64,000 nt of DNA from a virus (IMGVR_UViG_3300028048_000069:64001-128000); one strand, 5' to 3'. Shown: positions 40,784 through 64,000, counted from the first letter of the stretch. Notes: generated by a model from the letters alone, not told the origin. A program made the numbers and translations.

Positions 40784-41083
40784 ATGAAATTTGTAAAGTT
40801 GATTAAATCCGAAAAAGGAATACCAGCTGTAGAATATAGAAGAATGAACGATGGCATTCATCATTTAGCAATATTTAATAGTGTACAAGATGCTAAAGAA
40901 TGTTTTGATGCTTTAAGACATATGGAAGAAATTGATTTTGTGGATGATGAATCGGTAAATGATTATTTATATCAAGATGCATTTAAAAATTGTGTAGACG
41001 ATATAGAAGTAGATTATAGAACAATTCAAAAAGACCCTAAATATAACATTATAAATAAATCTTTCGTTTTTGATATATATTAA
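40784..41083 (+). CDS. Putative internal head protein (leader MKFVKLIKS)
   Basis: Shared N-terminal leader; acidic body. Confidence 0.6.
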   Translation: MKFVKLIKSEKGIPAVEYRRMNDGIHHLAIFNSVQDAKECFDALRHMEEIDFVDDESVNDYLYQDAFKNCVDDIEVDYRTIQKDPKYNIINKSFVFDIY

Positions 41084-41092
41084 AGGTACTAT

Positions 41093-41380
41093 ATGAAATT
41101 TACAAAAGTTATTAAAGCCGAAGGCATTTACGATAAATATAAACGAGAAATGGATACAGCCAATTCTAATTATGATGTTATAGGCAAAGAATTAAAAGCA
41201 CTACAAGATAAATTGTATGAGATTAAATCTAAAGCCTCTAACTTATATTATATGGCTAGTTCTGGTGATAATAAAGAATTAACAAACCAAGCAAAAGAAT
41301 TATCTAATTTAGTTGATGATGCTGCTTGGGATGGTATACACGAATTACAGCAAGCAATTCTTAAAGTAATTTATAAATAA
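41093..41380 (+). CDS. Putative internal head protein (leader MKFTKVIKA)
   Basis: Shared leader; helical body. Confidence 0.6.
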   Translation: MKFTKVIKAEGIYDKYKREMDTANSNYDVIGKELKALQDKLYEIKSKASNLYYMASSGDNKELTNQAKELSNLVDDAAWDGIHELQQAILKVIYK

Positions 41381-41982
41381 TGAAATTCTTTAAACTAATA
41401 CCTTATTTAATTATCGCATTTCTGCTTATTCGTATTGTATATTTGAATAAGCAGAATACTATTTTAATTGATAAAACTGCTACTCTTGAAGAAAATCTTA
41501 AAAATAAAACAGTTATCTATAAAGATAAAATAATCTATAAAGAACGAGTAGATACAGTTAGTGGTAAGGAAGTAAAGCAAGAAACTGTATATATTCCAAT
41601 TGATGGTAAGATAGAAATACTTACTCCTTCCGAACAAGAAAAATTAAATCTAAATATATTAGATAAAGCATTTAACCATATAATTAAACAAGAAGATGGC
41701 TCGGTTATTTTAATTAAAAATAAAGGATTTACACTTGCCCCAGAAGTCGCTGCTTTATATAGTGATAAATTAGAACTAGGGTTACAAGTTAAAGTATTTT
41801 ATTGGGATAGATATAATCTAGGCGCAGGTATTACTAATAATTCTGTTTTATATGGTTATGCATCAAGAAATATTTCTGATATATTAAACTTTACAAAAAA
41901 TACTGCTGCTCAAGTATCATTAGGTAAAGATTTAGAAAATGGTGATACTAAATTCTTGTTTGGTGTTAGTGTAAGATTATAA
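41380..41982 (+). CDS. Membrane-anchored protein with coiled coil and C-terminal amphipathic beta-strands (spanin-like candidate)
   Basis: N-terminal TM; C-terminal alternating strands ending FGVSVRL. Confidence 0.5.
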   Translation: MKFFKLIPYLIIAFLLIRIVYLNKQNTILIDKTATLEENLKNKTVIYKDKIIYKERVDTVSGKEVKQETVYIPIDGKIEILTPSEQEKLNLNILDKAFNHIIKQEDGSVILIKNKGFTLAPEVAALYSDKLELGLQVKVFYWDRYNLGAGITNNSVLYGYASRNISDILNFTKNTAAQVSLGKDLENGDTKFLFGVSVRL

Positions 41983-41986
41983 ATTA

Positions 41987-42015
41987 TTTACTTATTTTGT
42001 AAAATATTGTATTAT
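41987..42015 (+). promoter_or_regulatory. Sigma70-like promoter TTTACT-N17-TATTAT
   Basis: Same AAATTATTTACT context as 20147 and 57311. Confidence 0.45.
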
Positions 42016-42030
42016 ATAATTATAATAAAT

Positions 42031-42042
42031 ACATTTATATTT
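42031..42042 (+). promoter_or_regulatory. Late motif variant ACATTTATATTT
   Basis: One mismatch; intergenic; about 20 nt before ATG 42062. Confidence 0.5.
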
Positions 42043-42061
42043 AATGTGGGAGAATAAATTT

Positions 42062-42292
42062 ATGAAATTTAAAAAATTAGTTAAATCCGAAGAAGAAATT
42101 AAAGATACTAATAAAAGAAAAACTAAAATCGAAGAGTGGTTAGAGTCAATAGATGATGAATTGTATTATATTAAAGGTATGATTAAATCTAATGTAGAAG
42201 CGCATCCTAATCGTGGAGATATTAAAAGTGCAATAACTAAAAAATTGCAAGATGCTTATTCTTCACTGCTTGATATAGAGGACCTTTTTTAA
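42062..42292 (+). CDS. Putative internal head protein (leader MKFKKLVKS)
   Basis: Shared leader; GGAG RBS. Confidence 0.6.
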   Translation: MKFKKLVKSEEEIKDTNKRKTKIEEWLESIDDELYYIKGMIKSNVEAHPNRGDIKSAITKKLQDAYSSLLDIEDLF

Positions 42293-42302
42293 ACAGTTAA
42301 TT

Positions 42303-42830
42303 ATGAAACTAATTAGAGTAATTAAATCTAAAATTGTTAAAAAAGATAATAAGTACCAAGTTCAATCCGAAAAGGGAAAGAATTTAGGTACTTATGATAC
42401 AAAAGAACAGGCCGAAAAAAGACTTAAACAGGTAGAAATGTTTAAGCATATGAAATCTAGTATGTCTGCATCTGATGTAGAAAAAATGTGGCAGAATAGA
42501 TATGATGTAATAATTGATAAAATAGATTATGAAGATGTTTATATGACAATTATTACAGATGACCAAAAAGAGCATAAACTTACTCTTTCTTTAGATTATG
42601 AATTAGGCAGTTTTGTACCAGAAACAAAAGGAACTTCAAGTCCATATTTAGCCGATACCCCAGAAGATTATTATGGAAATAAGGCTTATTATGAAGATTT
42701 TGATATTAAAAAGATTACTATTACAAATATAGATGGAGAGAAAACAAATATTGATATCCCATTAAATAGCGATTTAGCGCAGTCTTTGTATAGTATGGTA
42801 GAAGAACATTATAGATTTACTCAAGATTAA
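42303..42830 (+). CDS. Putative head-associated protein (leader MKLIRVIKS)
   Basis: Leader, then the KY.V.SE.GKNLGTY.T..A.KRL.QVE.FKH module seen in phage head proteins, then an acidic domain. Confidence 0.6.
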   Translation: MKLIRVIKSKIVKKDNKYQVQSEKGKNLGTYDTKEQAEKRLKQVEMFKHMKSSMSASDVEKMWQNRYDVIIDKIDYEDVYMTIITDDQKEHKLTLSLDYELGSFVPETKGTSSPYLADTPEDYYGNKAYYEDFDIKKITITNIDGEKTNIDIPLNSDLAQSLYSMVEEHYRFTQD

Positions 42831-42854
42831 TATTTTATCGAACATAGAGTAAAG

Positions 42855-42883
42855 AAACCACCTAGAAATAGGTGGTTTTATTT
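42855..42883 (+). terminator. Rho-independent terminator AAACCACCTA-GAAA-TAGGTGGTTT
   Basis: 10-bp stem, GAAA loop, T-rich tail. Confidence 0.8.
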
Positions 42884-42891
42884 ATGCTTCT

Positions 42892-42903
42892 TCATTTATA
42901 TTT
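42892..42903 (+). promoter_or_regulatory. Late motif TCATTTATATTT
   Basis: Exact copy between terminator and tail gene. Confidence 0.65.
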
Positions 42904-42930
42904 TATATATAACTTTTTAAAGGTGTCCAA

Positions 42931-44724
42931 ATGACTAAACAATACAATAAAATTGGTGTTACTACTGGTGGGTATCGCGGTAATAGAGCGATACTAGAAC
43001 AGAGAGTAATAGAAGGTTTTAAAGTACCTAGTTTTCAAGAAGGAGTATTACAATTAGATCCAGAAACTCCTCAAACTTTATATCTAACTAGTACAAATAT
43101 GGCTGATGGTAATATTATTATATTGCCAAATGCTCAAGATTTATGGAATAACTGGCGTACTACAATTATTAATGAAAGTGCTTTTCCAGTTAATATTTAC
43201 TACTATACAAACGATTTAAGCCAATTAAACTTATTTAAAGAGATTTCTTCTGGCAATATGGCTACACTTATATTGTTAGAAAACTCTTCTACAACTGGTG
43301 TTTGGACAACTTTAAGAACAACAGAAATAACATCAGCCGAGCAAGTAGAAAAATATACATCAAATGTATTAGATACTATTGAAATTAACTGGAACCAAAT
43401 ACAAGGTAATACATCACCGATTGTATTTACATTGTCGCCTATTATGGCTGGAACTGCAGTTAAAAGTATTTATTTAAAAACTATTGAACAGTTTGTAAGT
43501 GACGGTTCGGATGAAGACCCATTATCCTTGTCAATTTCTGTAGGTATAGGTACTGATGAATCAGACGAAGAATATAGTGCAGACCACTTTATTTCTAATT
43601 ATGATTTAACACAACCCGTATCTGATACAAACTTTACTAAAGATTTATTTGATGAAATATTATCAACTACTGATAGCAAATATGTTTGCGCCACTATTAC
43701 AGGAAATAATCTTTCATCTTTGGTCAGTGGCAAATTGCAAATAACTGTAGAAAGAGCAAAATTAATTGATCCAACTGTATTAAAAAATCCTATTATTCAA
43801 ACAAATTTGCCTATCGGTACAGTAATGAATTATATATTTGCTGATGTACCAGAAGGATTTTTAAGATTAGATGGTGCTATATATCCAAATGCAAATGCTG
43901 CCATACCTAATTTTATTGAAAAATTGAACGCAATTAATAATCAATTAGTAGGAGAAAAGTTAATTGTAGGAATAGACGAATGGAATCAAACATTCACTAC
44001 ATATGGTTCCTGTGGTAAATTTGCTTGGCAAGGTTCTAATTTAAGATTTCCTGCTATTAATTGTTTTATACAAGGTTTAAGCGATTTAACACAATTATCT
44101 AAATTAACAGAGGCTGGATTACCTAATATTACTGGTACGCATGGAAGTGGTGAAAAATACAATGATGTTGGAACTTCTGGTGCATTTTATAAATTGCCTT
44201 ATACAAATAGAACAGCTGGCGATGGTACAAATCATCCGCAACAATATGGATTTGACGCATCTCGTTGCAGCCCTATATATGGACGTTCAAATACTGTTAC
44301 GCCATTAAATATTAAATATCCTTATATTATAAGTGTTTATAATAAAATACAAAATTCATCTGTAATAGATTTAAATGCTATTATGGAGGCAAGTGTTTAT
44401 AAAGCAAATACAGATTTGGATAATTTAAGCCAAATAGGTGTTGATAATGCTTTAAGAATAACTGAATCAAATTGTGCCGCAGATATGACTACTGGTGTAG
44501 GATTTTCTAGTGGTACAGAAATGCCATATAATGCTTTAGTAGTTGTTAGTGGTTCTTATGGTGGTTATGGAACAGCCTATCTATATGTAGATGGTGTTTG
44601 TGTATGGGCTGACCCAAACAATGAAGGTTCTGGTAAATTTCACTGTGGAAACTGTGTAGCGAAAAAGGGTTCTATAGTAACTTTTTCAAATATAAGTTCT
44701 GCTACATACTATAAATTAGGATAA
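42931..44724 (+). CDS. Tail fibre protein with collar-like domain
   Basis: PIGTV..PEGFL.LDG, AGLPNITG, GAF, FDASRCSPIYG..TV.P. Confidence 0.8.
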   Translation: MTKQYNKIGVTTGGYRGNRAILEQRVIEGFKVPSFQEGVLQLDPETPQTLYLTSTNMADGNIIILPNAQDLWNNWRTTIINESAFPVNIYYYTNDLSQLNLFKEISSGNMATLILLENSSTTGVWTTLRTTEITSAEQVEKYTSNVLDTIEINWNQIQGNTSPIVFTLSPIMAGTAVKSIYLKTIEQFVSDGSDEDPLSLSISVGIGTDESDEEYSADHFISNYDLTQPVSDTNFTKDLFDEILSTTDSKYVCATITGNNLSSLVSGKLQITVERAKLIDPTVLKNPIIQTNLPIGTVMNYIFADVPEGFLRLDGAIYPNANAAIPNFIEKLNAINNQLVGEKLIVGIDEWNQTFTTYGSCGKFAWQGSNLRFPAINCFIQGLSDLTQLSKLTEAGLPNITGTHGSGEKYNDVGTSGAFYKLPYTNRTAGDGTNHPQQYGFDASRCSPIYGRSNTVTPLNIKYPYIISVYNKIQNSSVIDLNAIMEASVYKANTDLDNLSQIGVDNALRITESNCAADMTTGVGFSSGTEMPYNALVVVSGSYGGYGTAYLYVDGVCVWADPNNEGSGKFHCGNCVAKKGSIVTFSNISSATYYKLG

Positions 44725-44726
44725 TT

Positions 44727-45059
44727 ATGAAAAAATTAGCAAAGATTGTTGATGAAAAATTACATACAGTAAATGTTGCCCTTGGTGACGACATGTCTTT
44801 TTATAAATCAATGGGATTTGTAAGTCTTAATGTTGAACAAGGATACGATGGAAATTGGTATATAGAAGGATATGCCCCAGTAAAACCAGAGCCTACATTA
44901 CAAGAAACATTAGAAGCATTGGAAGAAAAATATCATATGCCTCGTGTAGTAAGAGAAGGTATATTAGGAAATCCTTCAATGTACAGTGAATTTAATGTAA
45001 ATAAAGCGAAAGATTTAGAAGATATTGCAGAAGCAATAAGGAAGGCAAATAATGGCTAA
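44727..45059 (+). CDS. Tail fibre assembly/chaperone-like protein
   Basis: VEQGYDGNWYIEGYAP; directly after the fibre gene. Confidence 0.6.
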   Translation: MKKLAKIVDEKLHTVNVALGDDMSFYKSMGFVSLNVEQGYDGNWYIEGYAPVKPEPTLQETLEALEEKYHMPRVVREGILGNPSMYSEFNVNKAKDLEDIAEAIRKANNG

Positions 45060-45990: not shown

Positions 45991-45997
45991 TTAGGTA

Positions 45998-49971: not shown

Positions 49972-51945
49972 ATGAGTAAATTAGTAATACCTGGTGTAAT
50001 AGCACAATCTGGAAATGGTGGCGGTGGTGGAAGTGTAACTGTAGATAGTGCGCTTTCCACAACGAGCGAAAACCCAGTACAAAACAAAGTTATTACAAAT
50101 GCTTTAGAAAATGTTTACACGCAAGATAATTTGGTTGCTGGTACAAATATCAGTATTACTGAAAATTCAACGGCTTACTATAATGTGAGCAATTTTAGTG
50201 GCTCAAATTATATAACATTAGCCGCTAATAAATTCGCAAAAAGAAGTTATGAGTGGTCTTTTACATTAAGAGTACAAACGCCCCCTGCTAGTGTTGGAAA
50301 TATAAGTGGTAACTTTTTGGGTAGTCCTAGTCCTAACGGGTGGATGAGAATAGGTCTAGGAAGTTCTTGCGACACTAACAACGGGAAATGCAGATTTGCT
50401 TTAGGTCTTTCTACAAACGGAACGGGGTGGGACATAGGTTATGAAGTTCCTAGCACTTATGATTTGAGCTTGGAAACCTGGTATTGGCTAAAATTTAGCT
50501 ACAATGGCTCAAATACTTATAAGCTACAAGTTTCCACAGACGGAGTTAATTTTACTGACTATATAACAAAAACTTACAGCGGTGCATTATATACAGGGTA
50601 TAATAACTACCTTGTACAAATTGGGACAAACAGCTCGGCCGCTGATGCATACAAAGGCATTGTAGATATGCGTGGCGTAAAAATAGTTGTAAACAATGTG
50701 ATTACTTTTGACGGTAGCACAGCCGTAGCTGGTACTGATTTCACAGTAAACGGAAGTCCAACTATAAGTCAATCTAGCGGACAAACCTACTACCAAATCA
50801 ATAATACACAACCTTCGCCTGATTTGTCTGCTTATTTACAGAACACAGCCACTGGCTCTAATTCGCTTACTATTTTGGGAACGCCAACAACGCACCCAAA
50901 TGTCATAAACATAGGTTACTCAAATAATACATCCACGTCGGAGAACACGGTTGCAATTGGAAATTCTGTAACAACTAATAATCATCAGTCTGTCGTTGTT
51001 GGACATTCTGCTAAATCTAATGGTGGAAGTGTTACAGTCGGATATTCAGCACAAAGTGATGCAATTAGTAGTGTAACAATCGGTAGTTACGCTGAAAGTA
51101 GTGGCTATTCATCAAGATATAAAATCGCTATAGGGGCGTATGCTTACGCAACTCAGTCTAAAAGCATAGCCATAGGCGGTGGGGAAAGTAAGGCAGAAGC
51201 CGCGCAAGCAAAAGCTAATGAAGCTATCCAACTAGGTACTGGCTCAAATTCTACTGCCAAAACGCTACAAGTATATTCGTACCCTTTATTAGATGGTAAT
51301 ACGGGGAAGATACCTGCCGAGAGGTTGCCTGTCAAACATAGATTTTGTACAGAAGGGAAATGTAGTATAGATAAATCTGTAATCCCATGGCTTGAAACGA
51401 ACCAGGCATTTGTGTTTACATTTAGTTTTAGGACACCCCCATTGAAAAACTTTGCAAATGGTCAGGCAATAGTTATAACTGGCAACACGCATTATGATAT
51501 TGGGTTTGAACTTGTAATGGATTGGGAAGATGCTAGTGAAACTAAAGCAAGAATAGGAGTTGGCTTAACAACCGCAAACAGTTCCTGGAACTTGGGTTGG
51601 ACCTGGTCGGAGTATTCATTAGAACCCTTAACGTGGTACAAAGTTAGATTAACGTATGATTTGACTAAATACACCGTTGAATATGCGCCTGACAATAGCG
51701 ACAGTTGGACAACTATAAAAGAAGTAACATCTTCAGACAAACTGTATTGCAACTCTGACATTTTCCTGACGCAACAAAGTAACAGTTCTACAAATGCAAT
51801 ATGGAAATATGGGGAAGTTGATATAAACAGTTTTAAGGCAACAAGTGGTAATACTACTTACATTGATGGAGTATATAGTTTACGGAACTTGATAACCTTG
51901 CCTACAAATTCTTCTCAAGTGAAAGAATATTACGAAATAGGGTAG
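49972..51945 (+). CDS. Fibre/adhesin with two lectin-like (ConA/LamG-like) domains and YadA-head-like repeats
   Basis: VDSALSTTSENPVQNK, AGTNISI linker, Trp-rich beta-sandwich domains, xVAIG repeats. Confidence 0.75.
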   Translation: MSKLVIPGVIAQSGNGGGGGSVTVDSALSTTSENPVQNKVITNALENVYTQDNLVAGTNISITENSTAYYNVSNFSGSNYITLAANKFAKRSYEWSFTLRVQTPPASVGNISGNFLGSPSPNGWMRIGLGSSCDTNNGKCRFALGLSTNGTGWDIGYEVPSTYDLSLETWYWLKFSYNGSNTYKLQVSTDGVNFTDYITKTYSGALYTGYNNYLVQIGTNSSAADAYKGIVDMRGVKIVVNNVITFDGSTAVAGTDFTVNGSPTISQSSGQTYYQINNTQPSPDLSAYLQNTATGSNSLTILGTPTTHPNVINIGYSNNTSTSENTVAIGNSVTTNNHQSVVVGHSAKSNGGSVTVGYSAQSDAISSVTIGSYAESSGYSSRYKIAIGAYAYATQSKSIAIGGGESKAEAAQAKANEAIQLGTGSNSTAKTLQVYSYPLLDGNTGKIPAERLPVKHRFCTEGKCSIDKSVIPWLETNQAFVFTFSFRTPPLKNFANGQAIVITGNTHYDIGFELVMDWEDASETKARIGVGLTTANSSWNLGWTWSEYSLEPLTWYKVRLTYDLTKYTVEYAPDNSDSWTTIKEVTSSDKLYCNSDIFLTQQSNSSTNAIWKYGEVDINSFKATSGNTTYIDGVYSLRNLITLPTNSSQVKEYYEIG

Positions 51946-51952
51946 GTAGAAA

Positions 51953-52096
51953 ATGAACCTTGATATTGACACTATTTGGAAGATACTTGGGTTGGTCTTT
52001 GCCTGTGGGGATCTCGCTGGAGCGTGGGCAGATGTAACTGCAGGTTTTGGTGGAACTAATACAACTGTATTGTTCGATTTACCTGCTACAGAGTAG
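51953..52096 (+). pseudogene. 47-codon ORF, possible deletion remnant
   Basis: MNLDIDTIWKILGLVFACG...TVLFDLPATE, in the GC-richer block. Confidence 0.35.
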
Positions 52097-52121
52097 AAAA
52101 TAAAAGAATTAAATGCAAGAT

Positions 52122-52156
52122 TACCTCTTCTGTATAATTATAGAAGAGGTATTTTT
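52122..52156 (+). terminator. Terminator TACCTCTTCT...AGAAGAGGTA plus T-tract
   Basis: 10+ bp stem followed by TTTTT. Confidence 0.75.
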
Positions 52157-52170
52157 ATTCATTATCATTA

Positions 52171-52182
52171 TCATTTATATTT
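52171..52182 (+). promoter_or_regulatory. Late motif TCATTTATATTT
   Basis: Exact copy after the terminator. Confidence 0.65.
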
Positions 52183-52217
52183 TTATAATAAATTTACAAT
52201 AAAAATTAGGTGTTATA

Positions 52218-53168
52218 ATGGCATTAAGTGGTAAGAAAATTACAGAATTAAATCCTATTTCTGATGTAACTAATAAAACAGTATTACCTACAGTTTATAT
52301 TGATGATACATATACAGAGGCAACTGCTACAAAAGTTACTGTTCAACAATTAAAAAATAATATATTAAATGGCGCAGTATTACAACCTAATATTATTACA
52401 GATACCGAATCTACATCTATTGAATTAAATAAGATTTTGGCAAATACTATTTATCAGTATGGAACATTAAGTTCTTTAAGTATAACTACATTTGATACTT
52501 CTTATCAAGATTCATACATATACTTTAAAACAAGCGAAAATGGCTTTAATTTTAGTTTTTCTAATGCTAATTGGATAAATTTATATGAACCTAGTTTTAA
52601 ACTAAATACAGACTATATTATCCATTTAAAAAATGGTGTATGTGTATTAGAACAACCAGAAAATCCTATATTAAATATCGCTGCCACAGGCGGTAGTATA
52701 GCATTAACTACAAATACAGTAAATTCTATAACAATTACTGCTAATACTACATTCGTACTGCCACAAACAGTAAATAACAATATTTTAAATAAAATAATTC
52801 TTCAAATTAAAATAACTGGAACCCAAACAATCGATTGGGGAACAACTCATTATTTAGTAGATAGTTTTACTCTTACTCCAGGTACTTATGATATTGTTTA
52901 TGAATATGATTCATTGAATAGTTATTGGAAAGTAGGGCTATTATATAGTATGGGCGGCGGGGGCGGTGTAGCCCCTAACCTTACTTGGTACACAAACGTA
53001 ACTGGTACGACCGTAACAATATCTGATACGAGTTCAGTCACTTTAGTAAAGATTTACAAGAATGGTCTTTTGTTACAACCGACAGAAGATTATACAATTA
53101 GCGGTACTATGCTCACGCTTGTTACTGCCTTAGTGAGCACAGACAAAATTACTGTGGAGGTTTTCTAG
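52218..53168 (+). CDS. Tail-associated structural protein
   Basis: KKITEL start, beta-rich domains, GGGGG linker, YKNGLLLQP.EDYTISG module. Confidence 0.65.
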   Translation: MALSGKKITELNPISDVTNKTVLPTVYIDDTYTEATATKVTVQQLKNNILNGAVLQPNIITDTESTSIELNKILANTIYQYGTLSSLSITTFDTSYQDSYIYFKTSENGFNFSFSNANWINLYEPSFKLNTDYIIHLKNGVCVLEQPENPILNIAATGGSIALTTNTVNSITITANTTFVLPQTVNNNILNKIILQIKITGTQTIDWGTTHYLVDSFTLTPGTYDIVYEYDSLNSYWKVGLLYSMGGGGGVAPNLTWYTNVTGTTVTISDTSSVTLVKIYKNGLLLQPTEDYTISGTMLTLVTALVSTDKITVEVF

Positions 53169-53169
53169 T

Positions 53170-55524
53170 ATGGCAGAAACAGTTATCAACAAAAATCAAG
53201 CAGGTAGTGGAATTTGGACTAATGATACTCTTACGGCTGGGAACAATATAGAAATTAGCAATGCGGTTGATTCTACGAATTACTATCTATTTGGGAATGC
53301 CACTGTTAGTTCGCAAGGAATCCTTAGTGGTTGCAGTAGTTATAGTGGTTTAAGATTGCCTTTTTATTTTTCTCCTGCTTCTTATGATACCTGGGAATGG
53401 CAGTGGAAGGTAACATATTCTACTTCTAGCACTACACAACGTATTTGTGGAACAGGCAATAATACTTCCGTAGCACAAATGACTATTGGTATCGATAGCC
53501 ACAAACTAATTGCGTGGCTTAGTTCCACTGGCTCGTCTTGGGACGTCGCAAGTGGAACGGCTGGTACGACTACTCTAGCAGATGACACTGTATATTATGT
53601 AAGAGCAAAATTTACTGGCACACAATACGTCATTTCTCTAAAGACAGAAGGGGGAGAGTACGTAGATGAAATAACAGTAGATAGTACCACAAAACTTTTC
53701 AACAGTAATTCTGGGTTTATGATTGGTACTGCAGAATATAGCCATGGGTTTGCGGGCACTATAGACCTTAATGGCTGCCAATTAAAATCGAATGATACTA
53801 TTATATGGAAAGGGGTTCCTGACTCTCAAGATTCTGACGAATACCACATAAACGCAAGTGGTGTTTATAGCAGAACAAATTTGCTCGGTGGCGCGAATGT
53901 AACGATAAGCCAAGTGCAAAAACCTGCTATAACAAGCAATGTGGAAAGATTGTACCACTTTGACAACAATGCAAAAGAGGTAATACAAGACACTCCTCTC
54001 ACGTTCGTTAATTATTTCAAGACCTCTTATGTAAGTGGAAAATTCGGACAAGGAATAAATGTAAAATCTACTACTACAAGTAGTTCTTCTATAAATATAG
54101 GGAGTTTTCACGATACAACCAGTACAGATTTTACTTATGACGTTTGGTTGAAGCCAACTAGCAGTGATAGCACGAATGCTGCTTTATGGACTCGTTATAA
54201 TAATAATTATGGCGCTGAATCCATAGAATTTAATAACCCCTCCAACTCTGGTCTTATTAAAATATCTACTTATTTGGACGGCGTGGGCGGAAGCAGCAAA
54301 ACTCAAGTAGAATGGCCTGTTAGCATAACCTGGGGGGATTGGTTCCACGTGGCCTATGTGAACGACGCAACCCATAGCAAAGTATATTTATTCGTAAATG
54401 GGAAGAAAGCATACGAGGCAACAAGAACCACATCTTATAGTTTGGCCCCTTCTCTTTGTGCTTATGGGAGTGGTGCAAATGCAGGAACAAGTTATGATGA
54501 ATTTAGGGTAACACTCGCTGCTGTTTGGACTTCCGACTTCACTCCTTTCACTGAGCCATATAGCGCAAGCGATTCCGAAACGCAATATGCCATTAATGGT
54601 CCTGTAGCTGGAGATAATATCGATATAACTGACGGAGTGATTAGTGTCACTGGAGGTTATACTTCTACTAACTTGATTGCTGGTAAAAACATTCAGATAC
54701 AGAATAAAAACTTATCAGAATATATTGTAAGCAATTTCTCTACTAACAATTACGCAAGTATAAGTGGAACAAAATTTACTGGCAAATCTAATCCCTGGAA
54801 TATCATTCTAAAAGTCAAAACTCCATTATCGACTGACGCTAATGCTGGGAATATATTTCTAGGGTCAACTAGAACAGGGTCCTACTCGTACTATTCTGTG
54901 GGTATATCCGCCCAAATGACATTGTCAGGAACAAAATGGGGCGTCGGGTTTGGATTGAGTAGCAACGGAACTTCCTGGAACATTTCCTGGGTAGCAGAGC
55001 CGTCTTATCCGCTTAATTCAGATTCTTGGTACTATCTAAAGTTTAGTTATAACGGCTCTAATCTTTATAAGTTACAAATATCCGACGACGGAGAAACTTA
55101 TACAGATTATAGTTCTTATGAATCCTCTACTGCTCTGTATTACAGCAGTTCTTATTCTATTGCTTTAGGAAAAACTGGCAACGATAATAGAGTGTTTAAT
55201 GGCTCCATAGATATAAGAGGTTGCTCTATTGCTGCCAATGGCTCTAATACATTCAACGGTGCTACTGCAGTAAGGCCTACTGATTTTGACTTGCATGGCG
55301 CTGTAACAGTACAAAAAACAAACGGCTATGTTTCGCTAATAAATAACACGATTGACCCGTTGCCTTCACAAACTGGTAACACTGGAAAGTTCTTAACGAC
55401 TGACGGGACAAGTACAAGTTGGGCGCAAGCAGGGCAAGATTTAACCTCTGTCAGTGGATACAGTTCTTATGGTACGCAAGTATTAAAGAACATAAACGGT
55501 GTATTGACTTGGGTTAATGAATAA
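53170..55524 (+). CDS. Fibre/adhesin with three lectin-like (LamG-like) domains
   Basis: AG.NI.I linkers; LYHFD...GKFG...WFHVA...LFVNG...DEFRV LamG pattern; GKFLTTDG. Confidence 0.75.
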   Translation: MAETVINKNQAGSGIWTNDTLTAGNNIEISNAVDSTNYYLFGNATVSSQGILSGCSSYSGLRLPFYFSPASYDTWEWQWKVTYSTSSTTQRICGTGNNTSVAQMTIGIDSHKLIAWLSSTGSSWDVASGTAGTTTLADDTVYYVRAKFTGTQYVISLKTEGGEYVDEITVDSTTKLFNSNSGFMIGTAEYSHGFAGTIDLNGCQLKSNDTIIWKGVPDSQDSDEYHINASGVYSRTNLLGGANVTISQVQKPAITSNVERLYHFDNNAKEVIQDTPLTFVNYFKTSYVSGKFGQGINVKSTTTSSSSINIGSFHDTTSTDFTYDVWLKPTSSDSTNAALWTRYNNNYGAESIEFNNPSNSGLIKISTYLDGVGGSSKTQVEWPVSITWGDWFHVAYVNDATHSKVYLFVNGKKAYEATRTTSYSLAPSLCAYGSGANAGTSYDEFRVTLAAVWTSDFTPFTEPYSASDSETQYAINGPVAGDNIDITDGVISVTGGYTSTNLIAGKNIQIQNKNLSEYIVSNFSTNNYASISGTKFTGKSNPWNIILKVKTPLSTDANAGNIFLGSTRTGSYSYYSVGISAQMTLSGTKWGVGFGLSSNGTSWNISWVAEPSYPLNSDSWYYLKFSYNGSNLYKLQISDDGETYTDYSSYESSTALYYSSSYSIALGKTGNDNRVFNGSIDIRGCSIAANGSNTFNGATAVRPTDFDLHGAVTVQKTNGYVSLINNTIDPLPSQTGNTGKFLTTDGTSTSWAQAGQDLTSVSGYSSYGTQVLKNINGVLTWVNE

Positions 55525-57297: not shown

Positions 57298-57310
57298 ATG
57301 AATAAAATTA

Positions 57311-57339
57311 TTTACTTTTTTACAAAAATGTTATATAAT
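57311..57339 (+). promoter_or_regulatory. Sigma70-like promoter TTTACT-N17-TATAAT
   Basis: 17-bp spacing; AAGGAGGT RBS downstream. Confidence 0.7.
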
Positions 57340-57370
57340 ATAATTGTAAGGTAAATACAAGGAGGTAGTT

Positions 57371-57592: not shown

Positions 57593-57598
57593 TATAAT

Positions 57599-57925: not shown

Positions 57926-57928
57926 ATT

Positions 57929-57940
57929 TCATTTATATTT
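57929..57940 (+). promoter_or_regulatory. Late motif TCATTTATATTT
   Basis: Exact copy, intergenic. Confidence 0.65.
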
Positions 57941-57979
57941 TTATAGAAAGATTTTATCATTTAAGGAATTAAAATTAAA

Positions 57980-58249
57980 ATGGCTTCTCAAATTAAAGAA
58001 AATACATCTTTTGTATTGAATGTAGTAAAACTAGCATCCATTGTAATCGCTTGTATAGCAGCGGTTACATTTTTTATTTACGAAACACAAGGGTTACCGC
58101 CTAGAGTAAGTAAATTAGAAACAGACTTATCGAAAACTAATCAAAAGATTAGTGAAATGCAAACGGAGATGAGTAAATCGTCGGTAAAGCAAGATATTAT
58201 GCTAGAAGATTTGAAGATTATTAAAATGCATTTATTACATAATAACTAG
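57980..58249 (+). CDS. TM plus coiled-coil protein (holin-like candidate)
   Basis: One TM followed by heptad repeats. Confidence 0.5.
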   Translation: MASQIKENTSFVLNVVKLASIVIACIAAVTFFIYETQGLPPRVSKLETDLSKTNQKISEMQTEMSKSSVKQDIMLEDLKIIKMHLLHNN

Positions 58250-58259
58250 GAGATTAATT

Positions 58260-58493
58260 ATGAAAAAAGTATGGGATAAAATTGTAGAAGTTTTGAAAGT
58301 TATTTGGAATGGAATTAAAACAATTTGTTCTTGGTTCTTCAAAATTTTTAATACGAAAGAAAAATTGGCAGCCATTTTATTAACAGTTTATATTTGGCAT
58401 AGTTTACCAGTAAATGTTGGTTTGAAAATTCAAGTATTTTCGCTCTTCTTTATTTTGGGTGTATTACTTTTAGATATTAAGGAAGATAAGTAA
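58260..58493 (+). CDS. Small membrane protein (holin-like candidate)
   Basis: Amphipathic N-terminal helix and two TMs. Confidence 0.5.
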   Translation: MKKVWDKIVEVLKVIWNGIKTICSWFFKIFNTKEKLAAILLTVYIWHSLPVNVGLKIQVFSLFFILGVLLLDIKEDK

Positions 58494-58996
58494 TGAAGTT
58501 TATTAGAGTATTAAAAGCAGGTCGTGGCGCAGGATTAACACTTACCAATTTTGAATTAAAATTTACAGAGCCAATCAAACTCACAAATGGTTATAGAGGT
58601 GAGGTAAATCCTAATTCCATAAAGATTGTTTCATTCGATGTTTATGATTCTGATGAAAATCTTATAGGAAATTTTGGTGAAGATATGGCTTCAGTTGTAG
58701 ATGCCGAACTTAATTTTGGATATACAATTAAAGAACCAATAGAAAATGGAGATAACCCAATAAAAGTGGACACTCTTATTCAAAATGAACCTATAGAAGA
58801 ATATATTGGTAAAGGCCAATGGACTTATGAATATTTAAAGAAAGATAATATATATGAAGTTCATTCAGATGGGTGTGTTATGTGCTTTGATTATGGCTAT
58901 ACCGCTGACTTGTCGATTTGGCTTAAAATAAAATTAGATGGTGCTAATTTACTGAATATTTTGAACGAACAGGACGGATATGTAGATGAAATTTAA
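58493..58996 (+). CDS. Putative internal head protein (leader MKFIRVLKA)
   Basis: Shared leader; acidic body. Confidence 0.6.
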   Translation: MKFIRVLKAGRGAGLTLTNFELKFTEPIKLTNGYRGEVNPNSIKIVSFDVYDSDENLIGNFGEDMASVVDAELNFGYTIKEPIENGDNPIKVDTLIQNEPIEEYIGKGQWTYEYLKKDNIYEVHSDGCVMCFDYGYTADLSIWLKIKLDGANLLNILNEQDGYVDEI

Positions 58997-59843
58997 ATTA
59001 TTAAAAGCAAATGAATGGAAAGTAGAAAGAAGACATCACGATACAGAAAATGGTGAAGATTATTACTATATATGGGGACCAGAAGGTGAATATTGTGATG
59101 CCGATGGCGAACCCTATCGTTTTGATAGTAGAGAAGATGCTTTAGAAGAAGTAGAATATTTAAAGTCTGAACATAAGTTTGATAAAAAATCTAGAAATTT
59201 GACCCGTTCAGAAAGACATAATAAAATGATGAATGGTATTTTTGAATACAAAAATAAAATTGATAATGCCAAAGCAGAATTTTTAAAATCAAAAGGGTTG
59301 TCTGAAGAAGAATTAGAATACTTAAAAAAGAATACGGGTTTAGGAAGAGATGCTCTTGATGAAAAACTTATTGAACTTGGATTACATAAAGAATTTTGGA
59401 ATACTCAAAAGAATGCTTCAAAAAAAGTAACTTCAAAATTAGAATCTGGAAAATGGTATAAAATAAATGGTAACCCATTATCTTTACAATTTACTGGTGA
59501 AACTACTCGTTCTGGTAATCTTATTTTTGTAAAAGCAGATGGAACACAAGTGGTATTAGACCCAAGTGTAGAAAAACTTGCTGAAGAATTTGATTATGAA
59601 AAACATAACAAAATAGCATCCAAGAAAGTTAAATCAGGCGAAAGTTATGGTTGGTATGTAGATGCAGGCGAAGCCTGGGATAAACTTCAACTGTGGATTG
59701 ATACTGTTGGTGCGGAAGCAGCATTAGATGATATTGCACATGCTATGGGCACAGACGAACTTTCTGAATGTTTAGCCTTTATCTTTAGAAATAATGACTT
59801 CAAAGAAGGTTGCTCTGATTATGAAGAAGAGGAAGATGAATAA
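58986..59843 (+). CDS. Putative internal head polyprotein (leader MKFKLLKA)
   Basis: Shared leader; internal ASKKVTS and ASKKVKS linkers. Confidence 0.6.
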   Translation: MKFKLLKANEWKVERRHHDTENGEDYYYIWGPEGEYCDADGEPYRFDSREDALEEVEYLKSEHKFDKKSRNLTRSERHNKMMNGIFEYKNKIDNAKAEFLKSKGLSEEELEYLKKNTGLGRDALDEKLIELGLHKEFWNTQKNASKKVTSKLESGKWYKINGNPLSLQFTGETTRSGNLIFVKADGTQVVLDPSVEKLAEEFDYEKHNKIASKKVKSGESYGWYVDAGEAWDKLQLWIDTVGAEAALDDIAHAMGTDELSECLAFIFRNNDFKEGCSDYEEEEDE

Positions 59844-60502
59844 TGAAATTTAAATTATTAAAAGCATCGACGAGTGTAAAAACAGTAGTTCCTTTATTTG
59901 ATGGTTTTTATAATACCATTTTTGAAAATTATTGGAACAGCCAAGAAGAAATAGGAAGAGTATTTACCGATAAAGTAAATGAAAAAATAGGTAGCATATT
60001 ACCTTCTTTCAGTTATACTTTTGAAAAAATTTATTCTCCTGCTCAATACAATTATAGCACAGATGAAATTTATGCAACCGCTACATTTGATATGAACGAG
60101 TTGATGAATTATTTATCTGCTAATAAAAGTGCCTTTGATTCTTTTGCTCAAAGTAATTTTTCGAGTTATGATGGGTTTATTTCATTCGTTCCTAATAACT
60201 ATGATGAATTTGTACAAGAATTAACATCCAAAGGTAGCAGTGATTTATCAAGTTTTGTAGTTGGTGCTGTTGAATTTATTTTGTATAACGAATATGGAGA
60301 TAATATTAAGAACGATTTAAATGAAGACACCTACTATGATATGGATGTCCCAGAAGATGAAAGATGGGAAGTAGATGGTTTTACTTATGATACGGAAGAA
60401 GATGCTCGTTTAGAGTTTAAAAATGTATGTGAAAGTGAACCTTCTGAAGACCATGTTTTAATGTTAAACGACGAAGAAGTAGAATTTTATAAGGGTAAAT
60501 AG
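59843..60502 (+). CDS. Putative internal head protein (leader MKFKLLKA), very acidic
   Basis: Shared leader; FDGFYNT...SPAQYNYSTD...SYDGFISF. Confidence 0.6.
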   Translation: MKFKLLKASTSVKTVVPLFDGFYNTIFENYWNSQEEIGRVFTDKVNEKIGSILPSFSYTFEKIYSPAQYNYSTDEIYATATFDMNELMNYLSANKSAFDSFAQSNFSSYDGFISFVPNNYDEFVQELTSKGSSDLSSFVVGAVEFILYNEYGDNIKNDLNEDTYYDMDVPEDERWEVDGFTYDTEEDARLEFKNVCESEPSEDHVLMLNDEEVEFYKGK

Positions 60503-60504
60503 TT

Positions 60505-60861
60505 ATGAAATTTATAAGAGTTTTAAAAGGTGGTTTAAGCCAAAGAGAGTTAGACCAAATAGGTGCTTTACCAAGCGATAAAGTAGGAAAGTATAATCTT
60601 TATCAAGGTCAAGGTGAATTTTATATAACTAAACATAAATTGGATGATACTCTTGCTTTAATGGAAACTGCCGATACTTTTGAAGAAATCTATGATGCAT
60701 ATCGGTTAGATTTTGAAGAAAATCCTTTGGTAATAGATAAGAATTTACAATCAGAATATGAAAACTATTGGGGTACAGAAATAGAATTAGACCCAGACAT
60801 TGAAGATGACAATTTTGAAAATTATGGTTTTTATGATTTGAGTAGCCATTATGCAGATTAG
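60505..60861 (+). CDS. Putative internal head protein (leader MKFIRVLKG), very acidic
   Basis: Shared leader. Confidence 0.6.
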   Translation: MKFIRVLKGGLSQRELDQIGALPSDKVGKYNLYQGQGEFYITKHKLDDTLALMETADTFEEIYDAYRLDFEENPLVIDKNLQSEYENYWGTEIELDPDIEDDNFENYGFYDLSSHYAD

Positions 60862-60871
60862 GGAGTAAATA

Positions 60872-61219
60872 ATGAAATTTAAAGTTAAATCAGAACAAAC
60901 AGTAGAAGTATCAATGAGTTGGTATTTGAGTTTATTGGAAAAGGAACTTCAAAAAGCCAATGAAAGATGGGGCGGAGAAGCATCAGTTGCTTTAGCACCT
61001 AGATTATTGGAATTAATAGAAGATGTTGGACCTGGCCAGAATAGTGACCCCGACTATATAGCCGATAACTTCGTTATAAATGGCGAATTTGTAGAAAAAG
61101 AAGAATTTAAAGAAGGCGGAGAACACGATTATTTTTATAAAAAATATAATGGTGATTGGCAAGCACTATGTGATGATGCCCTAATTTATGACGAAAACTA
61201 TGCTTGTATGCAATTTTAA
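60872..61219 (+). CDS. Putative internal head protein (leader MKFKVKS), acidic
   Basis: Shortened shared leader. Confidence 0.55.
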   Translation: MKFKVKSEQTVEVSMSWYLSLLEKELQKANERWGGEASVALAPRLLELIEDVGPGQNSDPDYIADNFVINGEFVEKEEFKEGGEHDYFYKKYNGDWQALCDDALIYDENYACMQF

Positions 61220-61270
61220 AGAGGCAAAATAAAAAACATAAAATAAACTCTTAAAAAATTAAAACACACG

Positions 61271-61307
61271 AATTAAAGCCTCTATACTATTTAGAGGCTT
61301 TAATTTT
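61271..61307 (+). terminator. Stem-loop AATTAAAGCCTCTA/TAGAGGCTTTAATT
   Basis: 14-bp perfect inverted repeat. Confidence 0.7.
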
Positions 61308-61331
61308 ATGTATAAGGAGAATAAAGTAGAA

Positions 61332-61685
61332 ATGAAGAAAGTATTAGTAACAGCAGTATTAGTAACACCCTTACTCACATTCGGTCAAAGCAGAGTAGAT
61401 ACAACCATAGGCTCTTATGGGTTTAAACTAGCATTACAGCCAAAATCTGTTACTCAAATGGATTTGCAAAATAATATACAAAGGCAAATTGTAAAGCAGC
61501 AGACTAAAGCGAAGGTAGAAAAGGCAAAGAAATTAACCAAAGAGCATTGTACAGAAAATAAATGTACATTCAAACAAGTATTAAAGGCAGTATTTTTAGG
61601 CGGTAAATTTCCTTGGGAAACAGAAGAACAATACAAGGATAGGTTACAGAGAAGTACACATCCTTCAAACTTGCCTTTTAAATAA
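61332..61685 (+). CDS. Secreted protein (moron-like)
   Basis: Signal peptide MKKVLVTAVLVTPLLTFG-Q; flanked by hairpins. Confidence 0.65.
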   Translation: MKKVLVTAVLVTPLLTFGQSRVDTTIGSYGFKLALQPKSVTQMDLQNNIQRQIVKQQTKAKVEKAKKLTKEHCTENKCTFKQVLKAVFLGGKFPWETEEQYKDRLQRSTHPSNLPFK

Positions 61686-61688
61686 CTT

Positions 61689-61718
61689 AAACCTAGACAA
61701 TAAAATGTCTAGGTTTTT
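61689..61718 (+). terminator. Terminator AAACCTAGACA/TGTCTAGGTTT plus T-tract
   Basis: 11-bp stem. Confidence 0.8.
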
Positions 61719-61725
61719 ATTATCT

Positions 61726-61737
61726 TCATTTATATTT
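61726..61737 (+). promoter_or_regulatory. Late motif TCATTTATATTT
   Basis: Exact copy before the protease gene. Confidence 0.65.
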
Positions 61738-61781
61738 ATAGAATAATTATTTTATACCAAATTTGGAGATTTTAATTTAAT

Positions 61782-63446
61782 ATGCCTTTCAAAAGAATTG
61801 CAACTCTTGATATTAAACAAGTGTATGCTACTGATGAAAATGGAAAATTTCAGTGGCGTAGTTTCGTAAAACAAGCGAATGATAACCCATCTCAAGATAG
61901 AACAGATTTCCTACCTAAAGATGCTTACAAATATGATACAAACCATTTCTTATTTTTAACTGCTAGAGCCATTTCTGGTGGCGAAAAATGGGGACATAAT
62001 GGTAACTATGATTACTTTCCTTGGGAAGAAATTAAGAAAGCATTACCGACCTATCCTGGATGTGGTTTCTATATTGAACATAAAGAAGATAGTGAAGAAG
62101 ATGCTAAAGGTATCGTATTAGATGCTTTTGCTAATGATGAAGAAGAGTATGCAGTTTGTTTATGCGCTATTGATAAAGATGAATACCCAGAGTTTTGCCA
62201 ACAAATTTTAGATGGTACTTATAATCAAGTATCAATGTCTTGTTTGGCTAATGAATGTGAATGCTCTGAATGTGGTAATGTGGCTCATAGTTTTGATGAA
62301 TTATGTCAACATATGAACCCTAATATGCCAGTTACTTATATGAAAGGTAAAACAAATGACAAAGGCGAAGATATATACGAAATTAACAGAGATTTATGTT
62401 TTAGTGGATTGTCGGCTGTGGCAGTTCCTGCTGATAAAGACGCCTTCGTATTTGACATTAAGGCTTCGAAGAAAAAAGAAAATAAATTACAAGCAGAATT
62501 GGTTAAATATCAAAATATCAAACAAGCCGCTAAAATGAAAGAATTTAGAACGGCCTGTGAAGAAGAATTTAAAGCATTAGATACAGTTGCTTTATTAAAT
62601 AAACTTCAAACTTGTGCGAATGCTATTACAAATCAAGTAATGGATAACAGTACAGGTGGCAGAGATATTATAAATGCCCCATTACAAGGTATTTTGAAAG
62701 AGTTAATGGAACTTCAAATCGGATTAACAGTATTAGATTTAAATAAACTAGCAACTCCTTCTGTTGATAATACAGTAGCGGTTGAAGGTGAACCTGAAAC
62801 AGAAATGCCAGAAATTACTACTAATGTTGAAGAAGAATCTAAATTAGGAGAAGGTCATATTCTTACTTATAAAGATTTAAAGAACCAATATAACGAAGAA
62901 GAAGAAGTTAATTTTGATAAGGAGATAAATTCAATGTTAAAACAAGCATCCTTCTATGAGGATTTCCAAAAAGACAAGTCAGGTACTGGAGTTATAAAAA
63001 TAATTGATCAATTAAATGTTATGGCTAATGATCTTCGCGATTCTTTTACAAATAAAGATAATAGAATGGGACAAAGATCTACGAAAAGTATTGCCGAATA
63101 TATAATAAAAAAAGCAGATAAATTGAAAGACGCTGCTATCAAATTAAAAGAAAGATATCCCGAAAAAAATAAAGTAGAACCTATATTTAATTTTGATAAA
63201 GAAATAGAATCATATGATAATTGGTCATATACTCCATTTAGTTCCACTGCAAGCAAAGGAAGAAATATTAAGTATTTTGATAATACAATGGATATGTTGA
63301 AATGGATAAAACAAAATAAAGATTCCATTCAAAACGTAACCATAGAGATGAATTGTTTTGGAGATTCGTGCGCTAAAGTAACATATGAAACCTCTAAGGA
63401 AATAGACTCATCTTTAGATAAAATTATTGAAAAAACTTATAAATAA
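61782..63446 (+). CDS. Capsid maturation (prohead) protease with zinc insertion and long C-terminal extension
   Basis: N.N.D.F, IEH, KGIVLDA, VSMSC, CSECG..C.H, EIN..L.F..LSAVAVPAD. Confidence 0.7.
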   Translation: MPFKRIATLDIKQVYATDENGKFQWRSFVKQANDNPSQDRTDFLPKDAYKYDTNHFLFLTARAISGGEKWGHNGNYDYFPWEEIKKALPTYPGCGFYIEHKEDSEEDAKGIVLDAFANDEEEYAVCLCAIDKDEYPEFCQQILDGTYNQVSMSCLANECECSECGNVAHSFDELCQHMNPNMPVTYMKGKTNDKGEDIYEINRDLCFSGLSAVAVPADKDAFVFDIKASKKKENKLQAELVKYQNIKQAAKMKEFRTACEEEFKALDTVALLNKLQTCANAITNQVMDNSTGGRDIINAPLQGILKELMELQIGLTVLDLNKLATPSVDNTVAVEGEPETEMPEITTNVEEESKLGEGHILTYKDLKNQYNEEEEVNFDKEINSMLKQASFYEDFQKDKSGTGVIKIIDQLNVMANDLRDSFTNKDNRMGQRSTKSIAEYIIKKADKLKDAAIKLKERYPEKNKVEPIFNFDKEIESYDNWSYTPFSSTASKGRNIKYFDNTMDMLKWIKQNKDSIQNVTIEMNCFGDSCAKVTYETSKEIDSSLDKIIEKTYK

Positions 63447-63452
63447 GTTATT

Positions 63453-63464
63453 TCATTTATATTT
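63453..63464 (+). promoter_or_regulatory. Late motif TCATTTATATTT
   Basis: Exact copy before the scaffold gene. Confidence 0.65.
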
Positions 63465-63518
63465 TTAACTAGGAATGTCCTAGGATTGATTTATTTTAAT
63501 AACGGAGAATAACTCTAA

Positions 63519-64000
63519 ATGGCTAAAAGAAAAATCAAAGCTGAAGAAGAGGTCAAAGAAACAGCAGACCTCGAAAAAGACGACAAAGATTTAGAAGTTA
63601 AAGAAGAAGTGACAGAAGAAACTCCTAAAGCCGACGAAAAGGCCGAAGAAGAAAAACCTGCCACCGAAGAAAAAGAAGATCTTATCGTTTTATCAGATGG
63701 TGCCACAGTTGAAGAAAATGTTAAATTGACGGAAGAAGAAGCCGACGATTTAGCAAAAATTACAAAGGCTGATGGTACTGAAATCTTCATTCAAACCCCA
63801 GAAGGTTCTGAAGAAGAAAAGAAAGAAGTTTATGAAGCTATCGTAGATGCCGAAAAACCTGAAGAAGAAGTCGCTGAAGATTTAGAATCTGAAGTGAATG
63901 ATGAATTAGGTGCTGAACCTTTACCTGAAACAATGGAAGAAATTGATGGAGTGGCTTATGTTCCTGCTGCTTGTCATACTGCCCATGCTTCATTAAATAA
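63519..64000 (+). CDS. Very acidic protein, probable capsid scaffold (3'-truncated)
   Basis: MAKRKIKAEEEVKE..., Glu-rich; open to the window end; GGAG RBS; follows the protease. Confidence 0.65.
   Translation, partial: MAKRKIKAEEEVKETADLEKDDKDLEVKEEVTEETPKADEKAEEEKPATEEKEDLIVLSDGATVEENVKLTEEEADDLAKITKADGTEIFIQTPEGSEEEKKEVYEAIVDAEKPEEEVAEDLESEVNDELGAEPLPETMEEIDGVAYVPAACHTAHASLN

Follow-up and report, generated by a model that had tools for sequence, protein, structure and literature searches.

A short N-terminal tag that directs proteins into a capsid and is then clipped off by a protease has been documented experimentally mainly for phage T4; phage P1 loads its capsid without a common tag. 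T4 Alt, an ADP-ribosyltransferase, is packaged in the head and processed by the protease gp21 (PMC9026906). In giant phages the gp21-fold protease also trims its own C-terminus (PMC10052503), and in pseudorabies virus (PrV) a release site, YLQA|T226, and a maturation site in the scaffold, VQA|S, have been described (PMC4498786). Here we analysed IMGVR_UViG_3300028048_000069:64001-128000, a stretch of 64,000 nucleotides of viral DNA (the window), in which a group of genes starts with variants of one nine-residue peptide, M-K-[FL]-x-[KR]-x-[ILV]-K-[AS] (the leader), and which also encodes a prohead protease. We ask how this leader compares with the known capsid tags.

The window corresponds to positions 64001-128000 of a complete IMG/VR viral record of 136,046 bp, so that window coordinate plus 64000 gives the genome coordinate. 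The genome ends in 127-bp direct terminal repeats, has a guanine-plus-cytosine (GC) content of about 30% and comprises about 190 genes, nearly all of them on the + strand. The source genome (G000) was compared with relatives labelled G001-G005 and with L-numbered loci. As its virion module we took genome 104.7-136 kb plus 0-27 kb.

Results

A common leader on otherwise unrelated proteins

The original prediction listed nine leader genes in the window, and inspection of the open reading frames located all nine starts on the + strand, from 40784 through 60872. All nine are real, but the count was too low. A genome-wide scan for the loose leader set (the motif given above or a close variant) identified 22 leader genes, about 12% of all genes. 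The additional ones start at genome positions 184, 462, 866, 1360, 3732, 4214, 7411, 11622, 44459, 133601, 133952, 134924 and 135445. Variant leaders include M-K-F-F-K-V-K-K-A on a 916-residue protein, M-L-F-V-K-L-I-K-S at genome 3732 and M-K-F-I-R-V-F-K-A at 134924. Eighteen genes start with M-K-F, and 16 of these carry the leader or its K-K-A variant, the exceptions being the gene at 75207 and a transmembrane protein at 105380.

For the statistics we used a strict word, K-[FL]-x-[KR]-x-[ILV]-K-[AS] immediately after the initiating Met. This eight-residue word was found at the start of 15 genes versus 0.0006 expected from composition (binomial P ~3e-61), and only twice among 41,351 internal positions. 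Recurrence by chance is thus excluded. De novo clustering of all N-termini returned the leader as the largest cluster of the source genome (20 genes), while the same clustering in three other phages of the protease family, one of them with 26% GC and 411 genes, yielded only hydrophobic, signal-peptide-like clusters. A reading of the leader itself as a Sec or lipoprotein signal was rejected, as the peptide is charged and has no hydrophobic core.

Codons differ between leader copies, as had been claimed: Arg is encoded by AGA, CGT or CGA, Ser by TCA, TCT, TCC or AGT, Ile by ATT, ATA or ATC, and Leu by TTA, TTG or CTT. Codon changes within the leader are synonymous or conservative, and the DNA upstream of the leader genes has nothing but Shine-Dalgarno-like purine runs common to all of them. 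Because codons vary synonymously and the upstream DNA is unconserved, selection acts on the peptide; for the same two reasons, a DNA-level repeat was rejected as an explanation.

The leader peptide as a linker between modules

The strongest single result of our analysis is a sequence alignment with G003, a relative with a protease 57% identical to that of the source genome. There, the homologue of module 1 of the protein encoded at 58986 lies inside the C-terminal extension of the protease, with a copy of a repeated linker on either side that ends in F-F-K-I-K-K-[AV]-S; blastp (5e-13) pairs the N-terminal leader of the 58986 protein with this internal linker. In G002 and L005 the same module has a leader gene to itself. 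Four separate genes of G003 also start with leader words, one of them directly after the protease gene. A diverged leader is present in G001 (157 kb, protease 32% identity), where seven genes, all at most 19 kb from the protease, start with M-x-N-I-[KR]-x-I-K-x-x-L-[IM] and three further copies of the peptide lie internally, between modules. Judged from these alignments, two diverged versions of the tag (in G000/G003 and in G001) each appear to double as an inter-module joint, and on this ground we exclude a purely translational or DNA-level explanation.

Within the source genome, [KR]-x-[ILV]-K-[AS] occurs internally 26 times versus 10.6 expected, a 2.5-fold excess. Linkers of the type A-S-K-K-V-K-S bound the modules of a 1039-residue protein (five or six copies), of the 916-residue protein and of the 285-residue cargo encoded at 58986; in the last, A-S-K-K-V-T-S (residues 144-150) is encoded at 59415-59435 and A-S-K-K-V-K-S (residues 211-217) at 59616-59636, both on the + strand. 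The N- and C-terminal domains of the 1039-residue protein are conserved throughout the phage group. The modules between its linkers are unique to G000, or different in L008 and G002, while the linkers stay. In L017 and L019 the homologue of this protein lies between terminase-like and portal genes. The core of its G003 version was modelled with a predicted local distance difference test (pLDDT) score of 67 and had no meaningful match in the PDB and nothing usable in the ESM Atlas, and a domain search of the 916- and 1039-residue proteins found no recognised polyvalent domains.

The set of tagged genes turns over quickly. Only about five of the 22 cargoes of G000 have homologues in G002, and close relatives (L005, L006/L009, L008, L074 and G002) have different tagged genes, placed at different points among the structural genes. 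A scan of IMG/VR with one exact leader-coding pattern added just two contigs; in this collection the clade is thus a small one.

The prohead protease and its domain end

The gene at 61782-63446 (+ strand) encodes a protein of 554 residues that matches a PHROG 'head maturation protease' and also a family with about 2,000 representatives. An assemblin/gp21-fold domain occupies residues ~55-229 and is followed by a long scaffold-like C-terminal extension. The first 260 residues gave an AlphaFold2 model with a pLDDT of 84.5. Foldseek alone returned weak E-values for this model, and the assignment was resolved by VIA-align, which scored varicella-zoster virus protease at Z 11.1 (root-mean-square deviation 2.3 A, 114 aligned residues), PrV protease (pUL26N) at Z 10.5 (2.7 A, 120 aligned) and T4 gp21 at Z 10.3 (3.4 A, 132 aligned), against a background of Z ~6 for unrelated rows. 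The modelled structure thus places the protease in the assemblin/T4-gp21 fold.

His100 and Ser151 are invariant across 30 family members, and hhalign set them on His85 and Ser140 of gp21, with a weak score and an alignment in register; we take these two gp21 residues to be catalytic. The likeness to gp21 is one of fold only, since the protein lies outside the gp21 sequence family (Peptidase_S77) and has no PF03420 match. We detected no other maturation protease in the genome when looking for the S77, S78 and Prp types (PF03420 and PF04586 were unmatched), and comparison of the protease-family profile with PDB sequences produced only spurious zinc-finger matches. The family also has an invariant, zinc-ribbon-like C-x-x-C...C-x-H insert at residues 161-177 (Cys161, Cys164, Cys175 and His177; window 62262-62312), which, to our knowledge, is present in neither gp21 nor herpesvirus assemblins. 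The ~300-kb relative G003 encodes two family proteases, at C1:113087-113848 and 248445-250664, with 57% and 33% identity to the 61782 protein and with different motifs after the domain, I-K-A-S and V-Y-A-Q.

Structural alignments to assemblins stop at residue 229, exactly at F-D-I-K-A-S (residues 224-229; window 62451-62468, + strand). Family-wide, this segment reads [IV]-F-[DEQ]-[IV]-x-A-[SAQ], with I-K-A-S in G000, G002 and G003, V-F-A-S in G004 and I-I-A-A in G005. By analogy with the herpesvirus R-site, whose position and pattern it matches, we predict that F-D-I-K-A-S is the self-release site of the protease.

The leader ends in the same [ILV]-K-[AS] as this domain, and scaffold, portal and capsid proteins carry the motif at their N-termini too. 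Two instances noted in advance, MAKRKIKA at the scaffold start and FDIKAS after the protease domain, were both confirmed in the sequence. The acidic, scaffold-like protein of 527 residues starts with M-A-K-R-K-I-K-A; the window holds the 5' part of its gene (63519-64000, + strand), which continues past the window. K-[IL]-K-A starts the scaffold in G000, G002 and G003. In the same three genomes the capsid protein has [MI]-K-K-x-A-S at residues ~17-23, and the portal protein starts with M-A-K-K-V-K-A-S in G000 and with M-S-I-K-K-T-A-S in G003. In genome coordinates the gene order is protease (125782), scaffold-like protein (127519) and capsid (129581).

Cargo proteins

Beyond the leader, the proteins are mutually unrelated, as originally described: blastp found no match at E<0.01, and phmmer never exceeded 9 bits. 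They are also mostly acidic, as had been stated, with a median isoelectric point of 4.9 versus 6.9 for other genes (Mann-Whitney P = 1.6e-4). The virion module holds 21 of the 22 leader genes (Fisher P = 3.7e-10), and the one outside it comes right after the portal gene.

Searches of Pfam and PHROGs left 20 of the 22 cargoes of the source genome without annotation. The cargo of the gene after the portal gene, at genome 44459, is an ADP-ribosyltransferase of the ART-PolyVal family (PF18760, E 1.5e-19, 71.6 bits versus a cut-off of 31.2), and one leader-tagged protein of G002 is a nucleotidyltransferase (NTP_transf_2/Polbeta). The original prediction had named DNA mimics or anti-defence proteins as possible cargo; the cargoes with a recognisable domain are enzymes only. 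Domains of both families are common in proteins for which packaging into the virion and injection are predicted (PMC5512222).

Two further cargoes could be linked to other phages. The 219-residue protein encoded at 59843 contains a domain homologous to gp141 of Cellulophaga phage phi4:1, which aligns from its own residue 3 to residue 12 of the cargo (2e-13) and has no leader. The sequence comparison thus identifies the leader as a modular add-on, the domain existing untagged in an unrelated phage. An ESM Atlas search with this cargo gave no usable match. In the protein encoded at 42303, residues 8-54 match the N-terminus of the 'prohead core protein' of Klebsiella siphophages; in Klebsiella phage DP01 this gene is found just before those for the decoration and capsid proteins. 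In G002 the prohead-core-like motif is found inside a different protein, and the C-terminal domain of 42303 stands directly behind its own leader.

This motif of about 45 residues (window 42327-42464), ...K-Y-x-V-x-S-x-x-G-K-x-L-G-x-Y-D-T-K-E-Q-A-E-K-R-L..., is 95% identical in the different G002 protein (gene at 65205, residues 118-158) and has further N-terminal matches in 'prohead core' proteins from siphophages of Klebsiella, Vibrio and Aeromonas. It seems to be a small, head-associated module that is mobile. For one small cargo, a weak resemblance to Phage_scaffold stayed below threshold (E 0.036). A match between module 5 of the 1039-residue protein and the cargo at genome 135445 (12 bits) was too weak and was not used.

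A ferritin/Dps-like protein (Pfam Ferritin, E 1.6e-26) is encoded outside the window, at genome 134424-134921 (L001:6424-6921), amid a cluster of leader genes. The gene is kept in L006 and L010, and its product starts with the half leader-like M-A-K-N-V-I-K-N.

Leader genes and other features of the window

All nine leader genes of the window are on the + strand and fall into two groups. In the first, 40784-41083 encodes a 99-residue protein (M-K-F-V-K-L-I-K-S) with an acidic cargo that has no Pfam or PHROG match, and 41093-41380 encodes one of 95 residues (M-K-F-T-K-V-I-K-A) with a helical, coiled-coil-like cargo. The gene at 42062-42292 follows (76 residues, M-K-F-K-K-L-V-K-S); an in-frame ATG also lies 18 nt upstream, and the better Shine-Dalgarno sequence is at the leader ATG. 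The last of this group, 42303-42830, encodes the 175-residue protein with the prohead-core-like segment (M-K-L-I-R-V-I-K-S).

The second group comprises five genes in a row upstream of the protease gene. The first, 58493-58996, encodes 167 residues (M-K-F-I-R-V-L-K-A). Next come the three-module protein of 285 residues (58986-59843) and the phi4:1 gp141-like protein (59843-60502), both starting with M-K-F-K-L-L-K-A. A very acidic protein of 118 residues (60505-60861, M-K-F-I-R-V-L-K-G) and one of 115 residues with a short, seven-residue leader (60872-61219, M-K-F-K-V-K-S) complete the row. Directly upstream of the protease gene, 61308-61685 (+ strand) encodes a 125-residue protein with a signal-peptide- or lipoprotein-like N-terminus, which is conserved in L005.

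Signal peptides ending in ...F-G-Q-S or ...S-Q, found in the source genome and in G001, hint at a host among the Bacteroidota. Small Cys-rich proteins with a common N-terminal ...M-P-K-[ST]-C-x-x-C motif are encoded on the + strand at window 28276, 36187, 37541 and 38488; they formed the third cluster in the N-terminus clustering and are probably paralogous zinc-binding early proteins. The genome has an unusually high methyltransferase content, with at least five DNA methyltransferases carrying D-P-F-M-G-[ST]-G-T-T (window 6258 and 7413; genome 30670, 56897 and 62798). Two large tail-fibre-like proteins (window 49972-51945 and 53170-55524, + strand) have similar repeated modules in common, for example the stretches around ...N-G-W-M-R-I-G-L-G... 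and ...Y-Y-S-V-G-I-S..., and in this region (49972-55524) GC rises to 34-39%, versus ~30% elsewhere.

Discussion

The leader is most likely a modular N-terminal propeptide that would direct unrelated proteins to the prohead during its assembly; there, the acidic scaffold or core is a plausible binding partner for such a short, basic, amphipathic peptide. The phage's own assemblin/gp21-fold serine protease would then cut after the final Ala or Ser, freeing the mature, mostly acidic cargo in the capsid, and the same motif would mark the release site of the protease and the joints in large virion proteins of several modules, and would label scaffold, portal and capsid proteins at their N-termini. 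Since the motif is found both on tags and at module joints, stand-alone leader genes and polyprotein modules may be two interchangeable routes of cargo delivery. Part of the cargo, such as the ART-PolyVal protein, is probably ejected with the DNA, by analogy with T4 Alt and internal protein IPI.

The original prediction of a modular tag tied to the prohead protease and head assembly withstood all computational tests run, including the untagged phi4:1 homologue, the G003 linker, the domain-end motif and the fold; head loading, cleavage and co-injection, which it also proposed, we infer. Taking the motif and its enrichment together with peptide-level selection, modularity, leader-linker homology, the protease fold and the location in the virion module, we think that a targeting and cleavage tag resembling the capsid targeting sequence (CTS) of T4 is a fairly probable reading of the leader. 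Binding to the prohead core, cleavage at the bond named above, retention of the mature cargo and its ejection are the steps that we infer beyond these results.

Several points weigh against this interpretation. T4-type proteases cleave after Glu, not after Ala or Ser, and the T4 internal proteins are basic, unlike the acidic cargoes described here. The final leader residue is Gly at 60505 and Lys or Asn in some G001 copies, so cleavage may not be universal. The neighbours of many leader genes are tail genes, and not head genes only. In G001 the internal copies retain their Met and could be recent gene fusions or internal starts, and G004 and G005, although members of the same protease family, have no leader set. 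The scissile bond after the final Ala or Ser is placed by analogy only, with the herpesvirus assemblin sites (PMC4498786). The P1 DarB signal needs more than nine residues, and the leader, with nine, is shorter (PMC9024508). Finally, the phage is uncultured and known here from its sequence alone.

A wider possibility, which we put forward tentatively, is that the leader constitutes an open, evolvable 'address code', in which any protein that acquires the tag, or comes to lie between two linkers of the protease or of a virion polyprotein, would be loaded into the prohead, set free by the assemblin-type protease and injected. The ~22 genes and the polyprotein modules might then form a first-strike arsenal for host takeover and anti-defence, with interconversion of leader and linker as the way in which cargo is captured and exchanged.

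Among the alternatives, the one that survives best accepts that the tag brings proteins to the prohead, yet sees in them auxiliary core or scaffold parts that are degraded or expelled at DNA packaging, like the fragments of T4 gp22, gp67 and gp68, and not host effectors. The cargo is acidic like scaffold, packaged DNA would repel acidic proteins, 42303 shares its ~45-residue motif with the N-terminus of 'prohead core protein', and the small cargo's faint likeness to Phage_scaffold points the same way. However, 22 unrelated proteins with fast turnover between close relatives are unlike an essential structural core, and the two cargoes identified as ART-PolyVal and nucleotidyltransferase are effector-type enzymes. 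We therefore consider this explanation unlikely.

Still less probable is recognition of the leader by a machine unrelated to the capsid, be it a modifying enzyme of the kind acting on ribosomally synthesized and post-translationally modified peptides, a chaperone, or a host protease such as Prp, the enzyme that trims ribosomal protein L27 and certain head proteins of Firmicute phages. One-enzyme-many-substrates systems do show common leaders on unrelated proteins, the genome has one radical-SAM gene, and a host protease is conceivable. But this sole radical-SAM gene lies directly upstream of an NrdD-like gene, whose activase it most plausibly encodes, for which reason we rejected a radical-SAM recognition tag. 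Likewise, processing of the Prp/L27 type was set aside as unlikely, since no Peptidase_Prp gene was found in the phage; the leader presumably also lacks the Phe-Ala cleavage context of L27. Moreover, the motif at the end of the protease domain, at the scaffold, portal and capsid N-termini and in the linkers of the G003 protease polyprotein ties the leader to head maturation, as does the concentration of leader genes in the virion module.

That the peptide is functionless, and that what recurs is an A/T-rich initiation region boosting late-gene translation or a recombination 'cassette boundary', seems very improbable. The genome has 30% GC, an AAA second codon and A/T-rich starts are generally favourable, and all leader genes lie in late, + strand operons; yet the residues are kept despite synonymous codons, including GC-containing Ala, Ser and Arg codons, upstream DNA is unconserved, and the same peptide serves as an internal linker in G000, G001 and G003. 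In addition, G003, at 26% GC and with 411 genes, has only four N-terminal copies, and G004 and G005 have none. It is just as hard to believe that the cargoes are highly diverged paralogues whose N-terminus is the last conserved piece of one ancestral gene, since, although the genes are clustered and similar in size and acidity, neither blastp nor phmmer found similarity beyond the leader, the identifiable cargoes come from different families (ART-PolyVal, phi4:1 gp141-like, prohead-core-like motif) and one domain family occurs elsewhere without leader.

If the leader is indeed a capsid tag, phage-injected proteins, as candidates for anti-defence and host takeover, could be listed from sequence only, arsenals would evolve by capture of tags or linkers and by module exchange, and a very short portable tag would be at hand for loading foreign proteins into capsids. 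Under the address code, the tag would be a handle for finding injected effectors in uncultured phages.

Set beside the known systems, the reading as a capsid tag finds partial counterparts in several of them. With the polyvalent proteins of Iyer et al. 2017 (PMC5512222), the tagged proteins have in common ART-PolyVal and Polbeta-type nucleotidyltransferase domains, a setting among virion genes, the proposal that effectors enter along with the DNA, and proteins of several modules that would be cut apart. The cargo described here, in contrast, is mostly single-domain, separately encoded and individually tagged, and we ascribe its processing to the prohead protease instead of an embedded metallopeptidase. 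In giant phages, ejection or inner-body proteins, processed by gp175 in phiKZ or by gp245 in SPN3US, resemble the present set in that many head-internal N-terminal propeptides are removed by a gp21-fold protease (PMC10052503). However, those propeptides mostly measure 111-254 residues and have no common short tag, and nine substrates are known in SPN3US versus the 22 predicted tagged genes here. The Dar system of P1 offers a parallel in DarB, whose N-terminal signal suffices to load the anti-restriction protein or a reporter into the capsid (PMC9024508), but that signal must be longer than 9 and shorter than 30 residues, and many unrelated proteins do not have it in common. The ferritin-like protein among the candidate capsid cargo recalls encapsulin cargo.

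Herpesvirus assemblin (pUL26) has the same fold (Z 10.5-11.1), an N-terminal protease fused to a scaffold-like C-terminal part, and [hydrophobic]-x-A-[ST] exactly at the end of the catalytic domain (PMC4498786). Herpesviruses are not known to put this site on many cargo proteins as a portable tag, which is its predicted use in the phage. In the leader, the pattern [hydrophobic]-x-[small] mirrors both the [VLI]-x-A|S of assemblins and the [LI]-x-E| of gp21.

The closest counterpart is the T4 CTS, found on IPI, IPII, IPIII and Alt and processed by gp21. It, too, is a short N-terminal peptide common to otherwise unrelated proteins (PMC9026906, PMC3012670), and its end is a motif associated with the phage's own prohead protease, as the end of the leader probably is; the two proteases have the same fold, and the T4 cargo likewise varies between relatives and includes an ADP-ribosyltransferase. 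The two differ in number, with 22 tagged genes here versus a handful in T4, and in the end of the motif, K-[AS] here versus [LI]-x-E in T4. The protease described here lies outside the gp21 sequence family and has an insert like a zinc ribbon and, at its C-terminus, a long extension. The cargo is acidic where that of T4 is basic, and the tag, known here from sequence alone, also serves as inter-module linker. A T4-like logic would thus operate in an unrelated, uncultured lineage, with a different protease subfamily, a herpesvirus-like predicted cut motif, ~22 cargo genes and a tag equivalent to the joint between modules.

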